NCBI RefSeq assembly: GCF_056712565.1
Contig: NZ_CM160072.1
Direction: 5' to 3' (one strand)
DNA: 64,000 bases
Below the pieces are notes generated by a model that saw nothing but the letters and a program-made list of their open reading frames with translations, was not told where the DNA came from and made no database searches. This document shows, piece after piece, positions 6,697 through 14,711 of the stretch; the stretch's first letter is position 1; every line of letters starts with the position of its first letter. A program made the position numbers and the translations under genes.

Positions 6697-8042
6697 AATT
6701 TACCCAACGTCTTAGTCTGCGAGTCAGGCTGACGCTAATCTTTTTAATTCTGGCCTCGGTGACCTGGCTGCTTTCCAGCTTTGTCGCCTGGAAACAAACA
6801 ACGGATAACGTCGATGAGTTGTTCGACACCCAACTGATGCTGTTTGCCAAACGGTTAAGTACGCTCGATCTCAACGAAATCAACGCGGCGGATCGCATGG
6901 CACAGACGCCAAATAAATTAAAACACGGTCATGTTGATGACGATGCGCTGACTTTTGCCATCTTTACCCACGACGGCAGAATGGTCCTTAACGATGGCGA
7001 TAACGGAGAAGATATTCCCTATAGCTATCAGCGGGAAGGTTTTGCTGACGGGCAACTGGTCGGTGAAGACGATCCCTGGCGTTTTGTCTGGATGACCTCA
7101 CCTGATGGCAAATATCGCATCGTTGTGGGTCAGGAATGGGAATACCGTGAAGACATGGCGCTGGCGATTGTTGCCGGACAATTGATCCCGTGGCTGGTCG
7201 CACTGCCGATTATGTTAATCATCATGATGGTACTACTGGGTCGTGAACTCGCGCCGCTGAACAAATTGGCGCTGGCACTACGTATGCGTGACCCAGACTC
7301 GGAAAAACCACTAAACGCGACGGGCGTACCCAGCGAAGTGCGCCCACTGGTTGAGTCGCTAAATCAACTGTTCGCCCGCACACATGCGATGATGGTTCGT
7401 GAACGACGCTTTACCTCCGACGCAGCTCACGAACTTCGTAGCCCGTTAACGGCGCTGAAAGTGCAAACCGAAGTTGCTCAGCTCTCTGACGATGATCCGC
7501 AGGCGCGGAAAAAAGCGCTGCTCCAATTACATTCCGGGATCGATCGCGCTACTCGTCTGGTTGATCAACTGCTCACGCTATCGCGGCTGGACTCACTGGA
7601 TAACCTTCAGGACGTCGCGGAGATCCCGCTTGAAGATCTCCTGCAATCGTCGGTGATGGATATTTACCACACGGCGCAGCAGGCGAACATTGACGTGCGA
7701 CTGACACTCAATGCCAACGGCATCAAACGCACCGGACAACCGCTATTGCTAAGTTTGTTGGTGCGAAATTTGCTGGATAACGCCGTGCGTTACAGTCCAC
7801 AAGGTAGCGTGGTAGACGTCACGCTGAATGCCGATAATTTCATCGTGAGGGATAACGGCCCCGGTGTGACGCCAGAGGCACTGGCGCGAATTGGCGAACG
7901 CTTCTATCGCCCACCCGGACAAACCGCTACCGGCAGTGGACTTGGGCTATCGATTGTCCAGCGAATCGCCAAGCTGCATGACATGAATGTTGAATTTGGG
8001 AATGCGGAACAAGGTGGATTTGAGGCGAAGGTAAGCTGGTAA
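6693..8042 (+). CDS. qseC: sensor histidine kinase QseC
   Basis: 449-aa ORF with two TM segments, H-box (AAHELRSPL) and ATPase motifs. Confidence 0.92.
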
Positions 8043-8049
8043 CTTCTCT

Positions 8050-8083
8050 GTCTATGAGAGCCGTTAAAACGACTCTCATAGAC
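8050..8083. terminator. bidirectional hairpin between convergent qseC and ygiZ
   Basis: Perfect 11-bp inverted repeat gtctatgagag ... ctctcatagac with 12-nt loop. Confidence 0.55.
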
Positions 8084-8087
8084 TTTA

Positions 8088-8420
8088 CTAATAGCAAAAT
8101 ATAAACCGTCCCCAAAAAAGCCACCAACCACAACCCAGACAAATAACGAGCGAGAATACATATAGCCAAAACTCGAACATTTCCCGCATAAAGAGTTTTC
8201 TTAAGATAAGAATAATAAGTGGTGTCAGAAGAAAAAATGCTGCAATCATTGCTTGCAATATACGATCTTCGCCTGAAACAGAAGGTATACTGCAAATATT
8301 GTCTCCCGACTCAAGCATCCAGTCATACTTATTGAAAGCAAAAAAAGAATCTATTAACCAATAAGTAAGCATTATATATAATAGTGCTTCAAATATTGAT
8401 AGTAGTTGTTTTTTTAACAT
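8088..8420 (-). CDS. ygiZ: small inner-membrane protein (about 3 TM helices); YgiZ-like; possible immunity protein of adjacent effector
   Basis: 110-aa ORF, hydrophobic segments, AT-rich; immediately downstream of the effector-like gene (6-bp gap). Confidence 0.6.
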   Translation of the reverse strand: MLKKQLLSIFEALLYIMLTYWLIDSFFAFNKYDWMLESGDNICSIPSVSGEDRILQAMIAAFFLLTPLIILILRKLFMREMFEFWLYVFSLVICLGCGWWLFWGRFIFCY

Positions 8421-8426
8421 ATCTGA

Positions 8427-9137
8427 TTACTCATTAATCAATTTTTTGATATGTTCTCTAATCTCTAACAACCTCATACCATAAGAGATGAATTTATAAT
8501 CATCTGTATCACGCGCAGGCAAATTATTAATTAAACAAATAAAAAAACCCAAATCTCGTTCAACACCACGATTATATCTAATACCAGCCATAATATACTG
8601 CTCATTCGTCATATACAGTGTTGCCGAAGAGGGATAATCAAAAAGAACAAGATCTCTTAAATAAGTAGCAGCAATTTGAAAGGTAAAATCATCCTCCATT
8701 AGGCATGTCGCTAACTCTAACTGATTTCTGGTAGTTAATTCTGAAGGGTCTAGACCTAGAGTAATCGCTGCGGTTCGTATTTGTATACCCATTGAGCCAA
8801 ATGATGTTTTATTTTCAGGCATATCTAACAATCCGATCATTCTTTTTGTTTCATATATCTGAAACTTATAATTTTCAGGCATACCTCCTGACTCAATCCA
8901 GGCCACGCCGCCCAGTAACTCTGGACGAATTCCAGCGGCGTATGCATGTTTAATTATTTTGTCTCTATTATATTGTACATATGCATCTTTATAAGCATTT
9001 AAATAATATACTCCTGAACGGCGACGCGAATCATTTTTTCCTAACTTCCAGAGTAAAACGTCCATTTCATCCCATTTACGGAACTTCGCTTGTGGAATTG
9101 TACAATATCTATTTTTTATAGTGAGATCGCTTTTCAT
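8427..9137 (-). CDS. hypothetical protein with lytic transglycosylase/lysozyme-like (SLT/GH23-type) motifs; candidate Hcp-associated T6SS effector
   Basis: ORF 8427-9164; start placed at ATG 9135-9137 (MKSDLTIKNRY...), 2 bp after hcp stop, with AAGGA RBS inside hcp 3' end. Motifs GGVAWIESGG, FGSMGIQ and AGIRYNRG in SLT-like order; no N-terminal signal peptide. Confidence 0.55.
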   Translation of the reverse strand: MKSDLTIKNRYCTIPQAKFRKWDEMDVLLWKLGKNDSRRRSGVYYLNAYKDAYVQYNRDKIIKHAYAAGIRPELLGGVAWIESGGMPENYKFQIYETKRMIGLLDMPENKTSFGSMGIQIRTAAITLGLDPSELTTRNQLELATCLMEDDFTFQIAATYLRDLVLFDYPSSATLYMTNEQYIMAGIRYNRGVERDLGFFICLINNLPARDTDDYKFISYGMRLLEIREHIKKLINE

Positions 9138-9139
9138 AT

Positions 9140-9619
9140 TTAAAAAATCCTTTCTTCCCAACAACTATATGATTCCGTACTCGCGATATGGTGCTTCCAT
9201 GTTATATTTTTATAATTAAGAACAATGACATCTTCCGGCTGATTACCCGCATGTGTAATTGAGTGTGGATAACATGTCAGAATATTCGATAAATGTGCTC
9301 CTTGCAATTCAATTGTGTAAAACCTTTCAATACAACCGCCAGAATTAATTCTATAAAAATTAAATACAGCTGATAACTCTTCATTTTCAGAAAGAGCGGC
9401 ATTTAATAAAGGGGAGGATTTATCTATTGGCTTGTAAAATTTTATGGGGTGATGCACTACATTATACTCTCGACTTAAAGAATGGTCGAACTGTAAAACA
9501 AAAATTTCATCCACATGATTTATTTGATATTTATTACCAATAGATGCATACGAACCACAACCCTCAGAGATCAAACCTTGTATTTTCCCTTTAATTGATA
9601 AGTATATCATATTTGACAT
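9140..9619 (-). CDS. hcp: Hcp family type VI secretion system tube protein (orphan hcp)
   Basis: 159-aa ORF MSNMIYLSIKGKIQG...; typical Hcp length and conserved blocks (N-terminal YL.IKG, central FYKPIDKSSPLL, C-terminal ITWKH) recognised from memory of Hcp1-family proteins. Confidence 0.75.
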   Translation of the reverse strand: MSNMIYLSIKGKIQGLISEGCGSYASIGNKYQINHVDEIFVLQFDHSLSREYNVVHHPIKFYKPIDKSSPLLNAALSENEELSAVFNFYRINSGGCIERFYTIELQGAHLSNILTCYPHSITHAGNQPEDVIVLNYKNITWKHHIASTESYSCWEERIF

Positions 9620-9868
9620 ATATATTCTCCATAATCATTTTTTCCGAAAAACTCCTGTATCATTTGCATAATACATCTCTCCTGTGGGAGCTTATGGGAA
9701 GTTGATTTAAGTATTGTCATTTTCAGAAAATATTTATCCCGCATCGGTGAATCAGAGAAAGATCAGACTTTTGCTAAATTCGCAAAAGACTTTGCACATT
9801 TTGCTAATTTCACCGTACCGCTCTGTGACGTACTATAGTCGGCAAACGTCTCACCTTGAGGTTAAAAA

Positions 9869-10839: not shown

Positions 10840-11727
10840 TTAGCCATTCTTTCTTCCCGTTTTCAGTCCTCGATGGAAATCGTTAATTCGCTTAATGGTT
10901 TTAACCGCACGCTGCGGCACTGCGGAAGCTACCGACCAGACAATCATTTCCAGACACAACAATACCGTACCATGTAGCGGCGTTTTCCCTTTTTCATCCC
11001 CGCGCGGAACATGAATCACGATACTGGCGTCTTTGCTAAAACGTGAATCCAGCGCGTTTGTCAGCAAAATAACAGGGATCCCCAGCCGCCTCGCCTCACG
11101 AAGCGTTGTCAGCCCTTCCCGGTGCGCAGATTTTTGCGCCATCATGATCAGAACATCGCCACGTTGAAGCGCGATCAGTTGCTCGGCAAGGCCAATACCC
11201 GTACGGTTTAGTGCCGTGGCAGGCAAACCTATGCGGTTGAATAGTCGTGCGGTATAGTCCGCCAGAATACCCGAAGCGCCAATGCCAAAAATTGCGACTT
11301 GCCGTGCCTGCACCAACAACGCTACAGCTTGCGCAAGCGCGTGGCGGTTTTCAGGCTCTGACAGGACATTACAGGTATACAAATGCCCTTCAAGAACAAA
11401 GTCGATTGCGGTGTTAACATCGCTCGTCAAGTTACTCACCGTCGTAGACATCTTTTCGCTGGAACTAAGGGCTGGACCAAGCCACTGTTCCAGAGTGCGT
11501 TTCAGATCACGCAGCCCGGCAAACCCCAGGGCCTGTATAGCCCTGATAACTGTGGCATCGGAAGTGTTCAACGTGGCCGCAATTTCCATCGCCGTTTGCT
11601 CGAGTACCACTTCACGATGCTCATTAATGTAGCTGGCGACAGCTCTTAACCCAGGCGTTAACTGACTCGCGCGAGTGCGAAAACGCTCACCAAAAATATC
11701 AACCCGCGCTTTATCTTTCTGGATCAT
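10840..11727 (-). CDS. RpiR/MurR-family transcriptional regulator (N-terminal HTH, C-terminal SIS domain); last gene of Fit-like uptake operon
   Basis: 295-aa ORF; HTH region then SIS-like segment VAIFGIGASG...; start overlaps stop of upstream binding-protein gene. Confidence 0.8.
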   Translation of the reverse strand: MIQKDKARVDIFGERFRTRASQLTPGLRAVASYINEHREVVLEQTAMEIAATLNTSDATVIRAIQALGFAGLRDLKRTLEQWLGPALSSSEKMSTTVSNLTSDVNTAIDFVLEGHLYTCNVLSEPENRHALAQAVALLVQARQVAIFGIGASGILADYTARLFNRIGLPATALNRTGIGLAEQLIALQRGDVLIMMAQKSAHREGLTTLREARRLGIPVILLTNALDSRFSKDASIVIHVPRGDEKGKTPLHGTVLLCLEMIVWSVASAVPQRAVKTIKRINDFHRGLKTGRKNG

Positions 11728-12671
11728 TTAGCCTCCGGTAGAGGTCGCCCTGCAATTTGTGATTGTATCTGCGCAGCCATCAGCCCCAGAGATGCAAAGG
11801 AGTTAGAAATTGCCTCTTCACGAGAAATCAGCACATAACGCCCGGAACGACAGGCAGTCAGAAACTGACACCATCCCGGCATGACTTTTTCCATTGCTGC
11901 CAGCTCATCCTGAGGTTTACCACCGGTGTCACCGCGCCAGGTTGCAAAAACAAAATCGGCATCCAGTTCAGGTAAACGCTCCGCGCTCACATCCATTCGC
12001 CCACCTTCAGGAATGCTCTCAATCAGCGGCGGAAAACGAAAACCAGCATCGCGTAATACCCGCCCCAGCGAATGATAGCTATGCATCACATTAATTTTTC
12101 CCTGGTTTGCCTGAATCACCGATACCGTTATTTTTTGGCTGTCCAGCGTCGCCTTCAGCGCATTGATTTGTGCCTGATAGCGGCGTTCAAGTATCGCCAG
12201 CTGCGACTGCGTTCCTGTAAGTTCTGCCAGCTTGCGATAGATTTCTGGCGCACCCCCTTTGAGATGATCAATGCTCACCGTGGGCGCAATTTTTTCAAGT
12301 TGTTCAATGGGCGTATTACGGGTCGGTTCTGTGATGATCAGGTCAGGCTTTGCCGCCACAATCGCTTCAATATCAATATCAGCGGTACCAATAAAGGCGA
12401 TCGATGAATTATCAAAGTCGACACCTGTCAATAACGCGCCAGATCGAATGAAATGGCTACCGTCAGGCCGAGTTCGCCCGTGGCTGGCGACAGGAGGTAC
12501 ACCGAGCTCAATCAGAGGAATAGTGATATCAAGATCGTGTAAAGAGACAATTCTCTTTGGATGAGCAGGAACAGTGACTTTGCGCCCTAAATCATCAGTA
12601 AATACCTGAACAGGTTCTGTTGCACGGGAAAAAAATGACAACAGTATCAGCAGAGAAAAAAATAAACGCAT
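11724..12671 (-). CDS. periplasmic substrate-binding protein of iron-siderophore/B12-type ABC transporter (Fit-like)
   Basis: ORF 11724-12734; start placed at MRLFFSLLILLSFFSRA (signal peptide); cluster-9 type SBP. Confidence 0.8.
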   Translation of the reverse strand: MRLFFSLLILLSFFSRATEPVQVFTDDLGRKVTVPAHPKRIVSLHDLDITIPLIELGVPPVASHGRTRPDGSHFIRSGALLTGVDFDNSSIAFIGTADIDIEAIVAAKPDLIITEPTRNTPIEQLEKIAPTVSIDHLKGGAPEIYRKLAELTGTQSQLAILERRYQAQINALKATLDSQKITVSVIQANQGKINVMHSYHSLGRVLRDAGFRFPPLIESIPEGGRMDVSAERLPELDADFVFATWRGDTGGKPQDELAAMEKVMPGWCQFLTACRSGRYVLISREEAISNSFASLGLMAAQIQSQIAGRPLPEAK

Positions 12672-12681
12672 ATAACTCCCG

Positions 12682-13731
12682 TTAAAAACTGTTCCTGCGC
12701 TGCCAGAGCAGTAGCAAAAAAAATGGTCCACCAATCAGTGAGATAATGATTCCGGCAGGCAGTTGCAAAGGCAAAAAAGCCAAACGACCAATGCTATCCG
12801 CCAGAATAACTAACAACGCCCCCGATACCGCGCTCCCCAGCAGTAATGTCGTCTGCCCGCCACGTAGAATAAAACGTGATATATGGGGTGCTATCAATCC
12901 GACAAAACCGATGTTACCAACACACGAAACGCAGACGGCTGTCAGGATTATGGGTGCGGCGACACGTAACAACGCCAGACGAGAACTATTCACCCCTAAC
13001 CCGGTTGCAACCTGATGACCAAGCAGAGCGATATCCGCAGTCCTGGCGGTGAACAGCAATAAAAGAGCGGCTGGCAACATCCAACAGGCTGAAATACCGA
13101 CTAACATCCAGTTAGCTGCATGCAGGCTTCCCGATAACCACATCAATGCAGTTTGTACATCTCGAACATCTGCAGTGGTCATAAATACACCGATACCGGC
13201 GGCGAAAAACCAGGAAACACCAATACCAATCAGAACAAATCGCGGGCGGGAAATATCGCGCGCACAAAAAATCACGATTAAAGCCACCAACAGACCACCA
13301 GCAAGACCAGCCACTGGACGCCAGAACATTCCCAGCATTGGAAACTGGAAAATCAGCCACAGCACCGCCACGCTACATCCTTCTTTGACGCCGATTAAAC
13401 CAGGATCGGCAAGGCCGTTACGCGCAATGGATTGCATCGCGGCCCCCGCCATACCTAACATGGCCCCGCATAGCAATGCCATGATGACTCTCGGCAAGCG
13501 AATATCCTGCACAATATAACGTGCGTCTGTGCTTACGTTTTCTGGAGCAAACAACGCTCGTCCTACTTCCGATGCCGGAACAGAGAAAGAACCCTGCATC
13601 AGACCGAATATCAGTATTCCAACCGCAAGCAGGAACAGCCCACCAAGCAACAGCAGATTTTTAGGGCGCACCAGTGTCGAAAACTTACCAACACGTAGTG
13701 GGCGTAGCCCGACGTTCATTATCCGACTCAT
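12682..13731 (-). CDS. FecCD-family ABC transporter permease (Fit-like)
   Basis: 349-aa polytopic membrane ORF; 4-bp overlap with upstream permease gene. Confidence 0.82.
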   Translation of the reverse strand: MSRIMNVGLRPLRVGKFSTLVRPKNLLLLGGLFLLAVGILIFGLMQGSFSVPASEVGRALFAPENVSTDARYIVQDIRLPRVIMALLCGAMLGMAGAAMQSIARNGLADPGLIGVKEGCSVAVLWLIFQFPMLGMFWRPVAGLAGGLLVALIVIFCARDISRPRFVLIGIGVSWFFAAGIGVFMTTADVRDVQTALMWLSGSLHAANWMLVGISACWMLPAALLLLFTARTADIALLGHQVATGLGVNSSRLALLRVAAPIILTAVCVSCVGNIGFVGLIAPHISRFILRGGQTTLLLGSAVSGALLVILADSIGRLAFLPLQLPAGIIISLIGGPFFLLLLWQRRNSF

Positions 13732-14711
13732 TTGAACATCCTCGTCGCCATAATGACAAAAACAGGCGCACCAACTAACGCCGTCATGACACCGGTCGCT
13801 AACTCATGGGGCGTGAAAAGCGTCCGGGCAATAATATCTGCCAGTAATAACAAAAGCGCGCCGACACAAGCTGAAAGAGGGAGCAGAACGCGCAGATCCG
13901 CTGATACCAGACGCCGGACAATCTGCGGTACTAGCAGGCCGACAAAACCAATGGGGCCAGCAATCGATACGGCTGCGCCACAGAGCAACGCGATCGCAAG
14001 CAGGGTGAATGTTCGCGTGCGGAGTACAGAGACGCCCAGCCCCTGCGCCATGCGATCGCCCAGTGCCAACATGTTAAGGGAGGGTGCAAGGTAAAGGGCT
14101 AACACAAATCCCCCCAGAGAAAACCAGGCGGACGTACCCAGCGTCGCCCAATCCTGCCCCGCTAAATCACCTGCTAGCCATGTCCGCATCGCCAGCAGTG
14201 TTTGTTCGTCAAGAATCAGGATTGCAGCCGTTATTGAGGACACGAACGCCGATAGCGCCACGCCGCATAAAGTAACTTTCATTGGCGTTAACCCTGAACG
14301 CCCTGCGGAGGAAAGCAGCAATATCAACAGGAACAATAACGCGCCCCCCGTAGATGCCAGCAGTGGGCGTCCAACCGGAAAGGCCAGTCCAAGCGCACTA
14401 GCGGCAACGACAGCAAGAGCGGCTCCGGCATTTAAGCCTAAAATATGTGGCTCCCCCAATGGGTTACGAATGACAGCCTGCAACAAAGCACCAGCAACAC
14501 CAAGAGAAGCACCGGTAAGCAATGCTGCCGCTAAACGCGGCAAACGGAGTCTTACAATTACGTTGTGATCGAAGTTTTGCGGATCAAAATGAAGAAATGC
14601 CTGCAACACCGTTTGTGGTGCAATAAATCGGGCACCAATCCCTGGATATACCACGCATCCCACCAGCAGTAAGGCGAGGAAAATTACAGTAACCAGCCCT
14701 GTGCGCATCAT
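13728..14711 (-). CDS. FecCD-family ABC transporter permease (Fit-like)
   Basis: 327-aa polytopic membrane ORF; 4-bp overlap with ATPase gene. Confidence 0.82.
   Translation of the reverse strand: MMRTGLVTVIFLALLLVGCVVYPGIGARFIAPQTVLQAFLHFDPQNFDHNVIVRLRLPRLAAALLTGASLGVAGALLQAVIRNPLGEPHILGLNAGAALAVVAASALGLAFPVGRPLLASTGGALLFLLILLLSSAGRSGLTPMKVTLCGVALSAFVSSITAAILILDEQTLLAMRTWLAGDLAGQDWATLGTSAWFSLGGFVLALYLAPSLNMLALGDRMAQGLGVSVLRTRTFTLLAIALLCGAAVSIAGPIGFVGLLVPQIVRRLVSADLRVLLPLSACVGALLLLLADIIARTLFTPHELATGVMTALVGAPVFVIMATRMFK

Follow-up and report, generated by a model that had tools for sequence, protein, structure and literature searches.

The described system closest in its working to the locus studied here is the Tse3 (Tge1)-Tsi3 pair of the Pseudomonas aeruginosa H1 type VI secretion system (T6SS), in which the effector is an Hcp-dependent muramidase of GH23 type. 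Hcp-linked islands and Hcp-ET proteins of Enterobacteriaceae (Ma et al. 2017, 2018) are alike in their organisation: in such islands, hcp2B-vgrG2-xmtU/xmtV among those described, an hcp gene outside the core cluster brings a toxin and its immunity protein to a T6SS that is encoded elsewhere (PMC5874247). We analysed a stretch of 64,000 nucleotides of contig NZ_CM160072.1 (RefSeq assembly GCF_056712565.1), referred to below as the window, in which three minus-strand genes between qseC and mdaB code for an Hcp of 159 amino acids (aa), a 236-aa protein and the DUF2645 protein YgiZ. We consider it rather probable that these three genes constitute a self-contained T6SS cargo cassette, made of an Hcp-borne peptidoglycan-cleaving effector and a polytopic membrane immunity protein. 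The function of the module is a predicted one.

Results

Gene organisation of the locus

A preliminary description of the window, made from the letters alone, had placed here three co-directional minus-strand genes, in an AT-rich block between qseC and mdaB and with hcp tightly coupled to the gene that follows it. The three open reading frames (ORFs) were present at exactly these positions, and the features of the locus are:

9140-9619, minus strand: hcp (tssD), ORF of 159 aa
8427-9137, minus strand: candidate effector gene, ORF of 236 aa with a predicted GH23-like toxin domain
8088-8420, minus strand: ygiZ (DUF2645), 110 aa, candidate immunity protein with three predicted transmembrane (TM) helices
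9620-9691, minus strand: module-specific leader 5' of hcp with a GGAGA ribosome-binding site (K-12/O157 alignment, blastn breakpoints)
8050-8083, between the convergent ygiZ and qseC: perfect inverted repeat with 11-bp stems and a 12-nt loop (direct sequence reading)
8421-9691: stretch of triad-carrying E. coli, in place of which K-12-type genomes have an unrelated 141 bp (alignment, blastn)

The TAA stop codon of hcp (9140-9142) is separated by 2 bp from the ATG of the 236-aa gene at 9137, for which a longer TTG-started ORF extending to 9164 also exists, and the TAA stop codon of the 236-aa gene (8427-8429) by 6 bp from the ATG of ygiZ at 8420. Direct reading showed the Shine-Dalgarno sequences GGAGA before hcp and GAAAGGA before the 236-aa gene. 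The hairpin at 8050-8083, which a consensus scan did not call, is a probable terminator shared by ygiZ and qseC, and a scan for consensus promoters upstream of hcp (9620-9691) gave no convincing promoter. Because of the 2-bp and 6-bp gaps, the ribosome-binding sites and the terminal hairpin, the three genes are predicted to be one operon. The GC content is 0.29-0.39 over 8000-9800 compared with 0.50-0.59 in qseC and mdaB, and at third codon positions (GC3) it is 26-31% in the module genes compared with 55% in mdaB. The module is flanked by qseB and qseC on one side and by mdaB and ygiN on the other. Composition, neighbours and coupling are thus as first described. The preliminary description had treated hcp and the effector-like gene as the unit; the Hcp-cargo coupling holds, but ygiZ is no bystander and the unit consists of three genes, since DUF2645 was found with the toxin wherever an enterobacterial context was examined, and with a PAAR-fused version too. 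The locus is a real and well-delimited orphan Hcp-effector-immunity cassette, with a predicted function.

The 159-aa protein belongs to a separate Hcp subfamily

The profile check bore out the assignment of the 159-aa protein to Hcp. It matched TIGR03344 (TssD) over residues 1-157 with an E-value of 2e-58 and 197 bits, for a cutoff of 58.9, and the full model of PF05638 with an E-value of 3.8e-19. The nearest solved structures are P. aeruginosa Hcp3 (3he1) and Vibrio cholerae Hcp, with E-values of about 1e-20, and the match to Hcp1 of the Sci-1 system of enteroaggregative E. coli (EAEC; 4hkh) was weak (1.5e-5). It is clear from these matches that the protein is a true Hcp/TssD, for which ring formation and secretion are predicted. 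Identity of the orphan Hcp to the Hcps that accompany this toxin in seven other contexts is 53-75%, whereas it is 29-30% to the Sci-1-type Hcp and to Rahnella TssD. Across the genera, the effector-linked Hcps group together as a 159-aa subfamily of their own, and their alignment with the Sci-1-type Hcp and Rahnella TssD showed a 9-residue insertion near residues 29-37. The ratio of nonsynonymous to synonymous substitution rates (dN/dS) of hcp is 0.06-0.15.

Hcp2B of avian pathogenic E. coli (APEC) was tried as the identity of the module hcp and rejected, hcp2B lying in the hcp2B-vgrG2-xmtU/xmtV operon of the T6SS2 island (PMC5874247). A search of complete E. coli genomes at the DNA level gave no paralogues of the orphan hcp apart from divergent copies in 14 genomes, 12 at 80-90% and 2 at 60-80% identity, one of the latter two being a 96-bp fragment on plasmid C439.

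The 236-aa protein has a predicted GH23-like fold

The 236-aa protein gave no match in Pfam, NCBIfam or the PDB sequences, and phmmer against all PDB chains retrieved neither Tse3 nor Tge2. Its AlphaFold2 model, obtained with 26 homologs, is all-alpha, with a predicted local distance difference test score (pLDDT) of 72 and a predicted template modelling score (pTM) of 0.71, and exhibits a lysozyme/SLT-like (GH23) fold. Invariant residues in an alignment reaching from E. coli to Streptomyces and Nostoc are E82 in a W-I-E-S motif, S112, G114 and Q119 in a TSxG...Q119 motif, and R187-Y-N-x-G191; E82 is unchanged in 18 sequences from three phyla and in 74 further sequences. In our reading, these motifs correspond to motifs I-III of SLT. 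Motifs I and II would then lie about 28 residues apart, a spacing that may explain the failure of the Pfam SLT model. From the order of the motifs, E82 would be the counterpart of the catalytic Glu of Slt70 and MltE. The link to GH23 thus rests on the predicted structure and the motifs, because the Pfam, NCBIfam, PDB-sequence and hhalign searches were empty. An earlier guess at an SLT, GH23 or lysozyme relative was therefore upheld as to the fold in the predicted structure, but the Pfam SLT profile stayed silent. A few relatives of the toxin are called SLT-domain proteins by the automatic annotation of UniProt.

No Sec signal, hydrophobic N-terminus or TM segment was found in the 236-aa protein, and the absence of the last two fits a T6SS substrate. 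The dN/dS of its gene is 0.06-0.10. We found no literature on this effector, on DUF2645 or on ygiZ as an immunity gene, in a search that covered subscription journals thinly, so that an earlier description is possible. The effector and the immunity protein would both belong to undescribed families, in agreement, as to the effector, with what had been supposed at the outset.

The toxin domain is shared by many delivery systems

In a profile search against 1.84 billion representatives, the toxin domain was recognised in 508 proteins, 195 of them at E ≤1e-30, and was mostly C-terminal within longer proteins. Among 74 relatives, the Pfam partners were eCIS_core/DUF4157 (13), OmpA-like (5), PG_binding_1 (3-5) and PAAR (2), and more rarely RHS (1), WXG100 (1) and Mu-F (1-2). 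SLT itself appeared in these 74 relatives below threshold only (5 at E ≤0.1, the best at 8e-3), and a Streptomyces relative reached an E-value of 1.1. Fusions of the toxin to PAAR (P0122), Rhs (P0233) and DUF4157 were seen in individual sequences, and a Foldseek search against AFDB50 agreed with the polymorphic-toxin picture obtained from the profile search. These architectures mark the domain as a polymorphic-toxin module, of predicted toxicity, that serves many delivery systems. The fusions to peptidoglycan-binding domains (OmpA-like, PG_binding_1) argue indirectly for the cell wall as substrate, with peptidoglycan as the probable target of the toxin.

Ntox3, which matched in some relatives, was rejected as the identity of the domain, being an unrelated all-beta domain of proteins of extracellular contractile injection systems (eCIS), and the domain matches none of the carbohydrate-acting toxins listed in the same work (Zhang et al. 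2012).

YgiZ is the probable immunity protein

PF10840 is on record for close homologs of the YgiZ of the window and, in other genera, for the genes beside the toxin, and RefSeq labels ygiZ as a DUF2645 family protein. Hydropathy placed the TM segments at about 5-23, 54-72 and 81-99, followed by a C-terminus (...WGRFIFCY) with no charged tail. According to the positive-inside rule (MLKK at the N-terminus, RKLFMRE between TM2 and TM3), the topology would be N-in/C-out. The conserved loop YDWMxExGDxxCS and the conserved C-terminal Cys would then be periplasmic, and a disulfide between them is possible.

In all enterobacterial contexts, a DUF2645 gene lies directly 3' of the toxin gene, often with a 4-bp overlap, and a DUF2645 gene also follows a PAAR-toxin fusion immediately. 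Because the toxin-DUF2645 pairing persists when the delivery vehicle changes, as is classical for a toxin and its immunity protein, YgiZ is the probable immunity protein for the 236-aa toxin. More distant toxin homologs of Cronobacter and Streptomyces are followed by unrelated proteins of about 100 aa with two or three TM helices, and among the relatives examined a gene for a small polytopic membrane protein was almost always found downstream. The exception is the Rhs-fused P0233, with no small gene called downstream and the next gene, of 748 aa, 137 bp further on. Pairwise identities ranked Hcp above toxin and toxin above immunity protein, and those of toxin and immunity protein were correlated with a rho of 0.75, uncorrected for phylogeny. 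The dN/dS of ygiZ is 0.23-0.35, the comparison of K-12 with module-linked ygiZ included, and about 0.26 for ygiZ alone. Between K-12 ygiZ and module-linked ygiZ, identity is 92%, with a D40G change in the loop.

The triad recurs in other genera

The triad of hcp (159 aa), toxin (~238 aa) and DUF2645 (~110 aa) recurs in eight unrelated contexts, E. coli included. It was found in a genomic island of Chania, on F-like conjugative Serratia plasmids, one of them with colicin and microcin genes, at two different housekeeping sites in Pectobacterium, in Erwinia with a degraded hcp N-terminus, and on a Rahnella megaplasmid, where the toxin is just 40% identical. A Serratia plasmid variant has hcp on the opposite strand. 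In Citrobacter the triad occupies the qseC/mdaB site as it does in E. coli, and some of the copies are in decay. No phage genes were adjacent to the module in the contexts examined (E. coli, Chania, Pectobacterium, Citrobacter).

Several of these loci deserve separate mention. DUF2645 is intact in Erwinia sorbitola, where hcp is without its 40 N-terminal codons (L011, 7242-8001), in a Citrobacter with hcp cut to 112 aa (L022, 3943-4281) and in another Citrobacter with the toxin split into 150 and 90 aa (L023, 4297-4994). On the plasmid of Serratia sp. JSRIV002, a 151-aa protein with a clear signal peptide, which is not an Hcp, is encoded directly upstream of the toxin (L017, 3534-3989), and the hcp of the subfamily lies downstream of the toxin on the opposite strand. 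The triad plasmid of Serratia sp. JSRIV006 has in addition a pore-forming colicin (ColA_N/Colicin), an adjacent match to Pfam Microcin and a MazEF pair (L007, 17638-19132); judged from these genes, this conjugative plasmid is a carrier of several interbacterial weapons. On plasmid pPlas2 of Rahnella aceris, a second Hcp-cargo module lies 5 kb from the triad (L034, 135-1452) and consists of a tssD, whose product is 30% identical to the triad Hcp, a gene for a DUF2778 protein, which we take to be an L,D-transpeptidase-like effector of Tlde1 type, and a small hypothetical gene. The Rahnella megaplasmid appears to collect Hcp-linked ammunition.

Three states of the locus in E. coli

The locus was counted in 5,426 complete E. 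coli genomes. The whole module is present in 1,261 of them (23%), the toxin in 1,261 and hcp in 1,263, and in each of the 1,261 toxin genomes 80% or more of the entire 2-kb module is covered. Among the toxin copies, gene coverage reaches 80% or more in 1,260 and identity reaches 95% or more in 1,260. As the counts for the toxin and for the whole module are both 1,261, the toxin apparently never occurs without ygiZ in E. coli. With ygiZ present in 4,598 genomes, subtraction leaves about 3,337 (about 61%) with ygiZ only, the K-12 type, and about 828 (about 15%) with neither toxin nor ygiZ, the O157:H7 type. The carriers include the E. coli type strain, Nissle 1917, ATCC 25922, O25b:H4 sequence type (ST) 131, APEC O2:K1 and the meningitis strain CE10.

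K-12-type genomes have ygiZ and a 318-bp ygiZ-mdaB spacer, with no hcp and no 236-aa gene, and homology with K-12 picks up again at about 9692, upstream of the hcp leader. The 141 bp specific for K-12 gave no remnant of hcp or toxin when compared with the triad by blastn with short and relaxed settings and by blastx against all triad proteins. The ygiZ promoter of K-12, cloned from the ygiZ-mdaB spacer, is activated by BglJ-RcsB, which counteracts H-NS repression at some of its targets (PMC3950696). In O157:H7 the entire interval 8043-9765 is absent. The preliminary description, which gave K-12 a short ygiZ-mdaB intergenic region, was correct in substance on this point. The conclusion drawn from it, that hcp and the effector gene had been inserted, probably has the direction wrong: because Citrobacter has the same triad at the same site, an ancestral triad with later loss is favoured, and the K-12 state more likely reflects the loss of hcp and toxin from this triad with ygiZ kept.

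Carriers of the module encode a T6SS elsewhere

Positions 4900-62268 of the window are collinear with E. coli ATCC 25922 at 98.5-99.8% identity, and the RefSeq annotation of the matching ATCC 25922 stretch contains no other T6SS gene. By this proxy, the 64-kb window indeed holds no further T6SS gene, as had been noted. ATCC 25922, whose module is 99.8% identical, carries a complete T6SS about 350 kb from the module, at metV: tssA, B, C, E, F, G, H, J, K and L, together with hcp, vgrG, PAAR, VasL, a TagL-like gene and a tssM-type gene related to ImcF. In SF-166, whose module is 100% identical, the part of the metV cluster that was fetched contains tssB, tssC, tssK, tssL, hcp, tssH and a DUF2345 (VgrG-like) gene. 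No second T6SS was found in the first 45 kb of the aspV island of ATCC 25922, in a search that stopped short of the whole genome. The Hcp of the metV cluster is of the EAEC Sci-1 type (4hkh, 5e-89). The supposition that the module relies on a T6SS encoded elsewhere is thus supported by the presence of one in both carriers. The orphan Hcp shares just 29% identity with the resident tube protein, so that delivery by the host T6SS is inferred.

Other features of the window

Between ygiN and parE, the window at 10840-14000 and beyond (726354-733546 in the ATCC 25922 record) has genes for a MurR/RpiR regulator, an iron-siderophore ATP-binding cassette transporter and a TonB-dependent receptor. This island is absent from K-12, where ygiN adjoins parE directly, and it is independent of the hcp module, because strain PN43 has the module with parE next to ygiN. 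The record NZ_MG591698.1 (L020), listed in PLSDB as a 353-kb plasmid of E. coli PN43, contains parE, mdaB, qseBC, ygiW and mqsRA, and looks like a mislabelled chromosomal fragment. At about 47620 ATCC 25922 has, by ygiM, an IS200/IS605 element with ISEc41 tnpA and a TnpB RNA-guided endonuclease (695027-696697 of its record), which the window does not have; this is the sole large break in collinearity with ATCC 25922 over 57 kb.

Discussion

In the mechanism that we propose, hexameric rings of the orphan Hcp would bind the 236-aa protein in the cytoplasm of the producer, and the loaded rings would join the tube of a T6SS encoded elsewhere, which in ATCC 25922 would be the Sci-1-type cluster at metV. 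Firing would bring the 236-aa protein into the periplasm of a neighbouring Gram-negative cell, where its lysozyme-like GH23 domain would cut the glycan strands of peptidoglycan, E82 acting as the general acid. YgiZ, as a three-helix inner-membrane protein whose conserved and probably disulfide-stapled loop faces the periplasm, would bind or exclude the toxin at the membrane surface and so shield the producer and its kin. Strains with ygiZ only, K-12 included, would be immune bystanders with an orphan immunity gene, and strains with the empty site would be susceptible.

Several points weigh against this proposal. The known immunity proteins of the Tge effectors are soluble periplasmic proteins or lipoproteins, and polytopic membrane immunity proteins are more typical for membrane-targeting toxins. 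The pairwise-identity statistics include no phylogenetic correction. On the side of the toxin, the Pfam SLT model (PF01464) gave no match to the 236-aa protein even at E ≤10, hhalign detected nothing when the toxin family alignment was compared with E. coli MltD, the AlphaFold2 model behind the GH23 assignment is of medium confidence, and no secretion or toxicity data for the module were found in the literature searched. On the side of the Hcp, all effector-linked proteins are, compared with the Sci-1-type Hcp and Rahnella TssD, shorter by 9 residues in the loop that follows residue 55 (alignment columns 56-64). This natural deletion sits about at the position of the L2,3 loop (Vs2), a putative correspondence, and deletion of Vs2 in E. 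coli Hcp1 and Hcp2B abolished secretion (Ma et al., PMC5874247). Given also the 29% identity to the metV-cluster Hcp, co-assembly of the orphan Hcp with the resident tube is uncertain; the low identity and the short loop therefore make its entry into a heterologous tube the weakest link of the model. The metV clusters of both carriers show damage, with a frameshifted TagL-like OmpA-family gene in SF-166 (L021, 4503-6066) and a frameshifted ISEc52 copy in the variable region of ATCC 25922 (L013, 35896-37065), so that T6SS activity in carriers cannot be assumed. The tssM gene is interrupted in ST131 clade C (PMC10711316), and the O25b:H4 genome that carries the module has no clade assigned here.

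These observations on the Hcp and on the secretion apparatus are also what would be expected if the same toxin-immunity pair were present in E. coli with its offence idle, the orphan Hcp being excluded from the Sci-1-type tube or the T6SS being silent or broken, and if selection acted mainly on ygiZ as a defence against attackers such as Citrobacter or other Enterobacterales. The low identity of the two Hcps, the T6SS lesions in carrier lineages (PMC10711316 among the sources), the retention of ygiZ alone in about 61% of the genomes under a dN/dS of about 0.26, its own BglJ-RcsB-activated promoter in K-12 (PMC3950696) and the decayed hcp or toxin copies in Citrobacter and Erwinia all fit this explanation. 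However, hcp and toxin are intact in E. coli and under strong purifying selection (dN/dS 0.06-0.15), nearly all toxin copies are both complete to at least 80% and at least 95% identical (1,260 of 1,261 each), and the ST73 and ST95 carriers consistently retain their tss genes (PMC10711316), which makes an idle offence unlikely. It would be quite unlikely as well, by our estimate, that the toxin is delivered as we propose but, in place of the mature sacculus, attacks lipid-linked glycans on the outer side of the inner membrane, whether lipid II, nascent glycan strands or another undecaprenyl-linked polymer. Such a substrate would explain why a small polytopic membrane protein is the constant immunity partner. 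A T6SS-independent lysis cassette, with an endolysin and a holin-like YgiZ, or a transglycosylase that opens the wall of the producer for T6SS assembly, is highly improbable: a signal-less lysozyme-like enzyme beside a three-TM protein of about 110 aa superficially recalls a holin-endolysin pair, and GH23 enzymes are often recruited by secretion systems (EtgA, VirB1, MltE with Sci-1), but the C-terminus of YgiZ (...GRFIFCY) is without the charged tail typical of holins, ygiZ stands alone in most E. coli, phage genes are not adjacent in the contexts examined, a cytoplasmic enzyme without export would be unable to reach its own wall, and the domain is marked as an exported toxin by its fusions to PAAR, Rhs, WXG100 and eCIS-core carriers.

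Returning to the Hcp-borne effector with its membrane immunity protein, a bolder extension may be formulated, possible but doubtful when all its parts are taken jointly. DUF2645/YgiZ would be the first of a new class of polytopic membrane immunity proteins against a glycan-cleaving toxin whose substrate at the membrane face is lipid II or nascent strands and not the bulk sacculus; the states of the locus would amount to a rock-paper-scissors game of gut strain competition between armed B2/F strains (Nissle, ST73, ST95, ST131), immune-only strains (K-12) and naive strains of the O157:H7 type; and the Hcp with its short loop would serve as a dedicated cargo ring, able to travel in tubes made of a heterologous Hcp.

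If the cassette works as proposed, ygiZ, a conserved K-12 gene of unknown function, would have a function as an orphan T6SS immunity gene. The work would also add a new widespread toxin domain, with about 500 representative clusters and carriers of Hcp, PAAR, Rhs, eCIS and type VII secretion system (T7SS) type, together with a new immunity family. The combination of a glycosidase fold and a polytopic membrane antidote departs from the known Tge pattern and could point to a membrane-proximal target. The armed, immune and naive states (23%, 61% and 15%) span clinical lineages, with Nissle 1917, ATCC 25922, ST131, APEC and neonatal-meningitis strains on the armed side and O157:H7 on the other, and this polymorphism could bear on colonisation resistance. 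A minimal cassette of 1.5 kb, on conjugative plasmids and at many chromosomal sites, would mean that T6SS ammunition spreads apart from the gun.

Comparison with known systems

Compared with Tse3, the 236-aa protein shows no detectable sequence similarity. Tse3 has 408 aa, is Ca2+-dependent and is encoded away from its Hcp, whereas the module toxin gene adjoins hcp, and Tsi3 is a soluble periplasmic lipoprotein, whereas the partner in the module is a three-TM inner-membrane protein. Tge2-Tgi2 and Tge3 (Whitney et al. 2013) are a weaker structural match to the module toxin, have no sequence relationship with it and are paired with periplasmic immunity proteins. With no sequence match and a three-TM membrane protein as partner, the module stands apart from Tge1-Tge3. 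The family-1 lytic transglycosylases Slt70, MltE, MltC and MltF serve housekeeping functions, bear signal peptides or lipoboxes and lack an immunity partner; compared with Slt70- and MltE-type enzymes, the module toxin escapes the Pfam SLT model and has its motifs I and II about 28 residues apart. Unlike in the Hcp-ET fusions, the toxin is separate from the Hcp, and the module has no VgrG, PAAR or adaptor gene; compared with the hcp2B islands, the Hcp is of its own 159-aa subfamily and the locus is a distinct one. YgiZ itself resembles the immunity proteins against pore-forming colicins and T6SS membrane toxins (Cai/Cei, Tsi4, Sip6, TsiV2), which are likewise small, with three or four TM helices, intercept their toxins at the inner membrane and are frequently orphans. 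No sequence relationship to these systems was seen. Their toxins attack the membrane itself, whereas the module toxin has the predicted fold of a glycan-cleaving enzyme.

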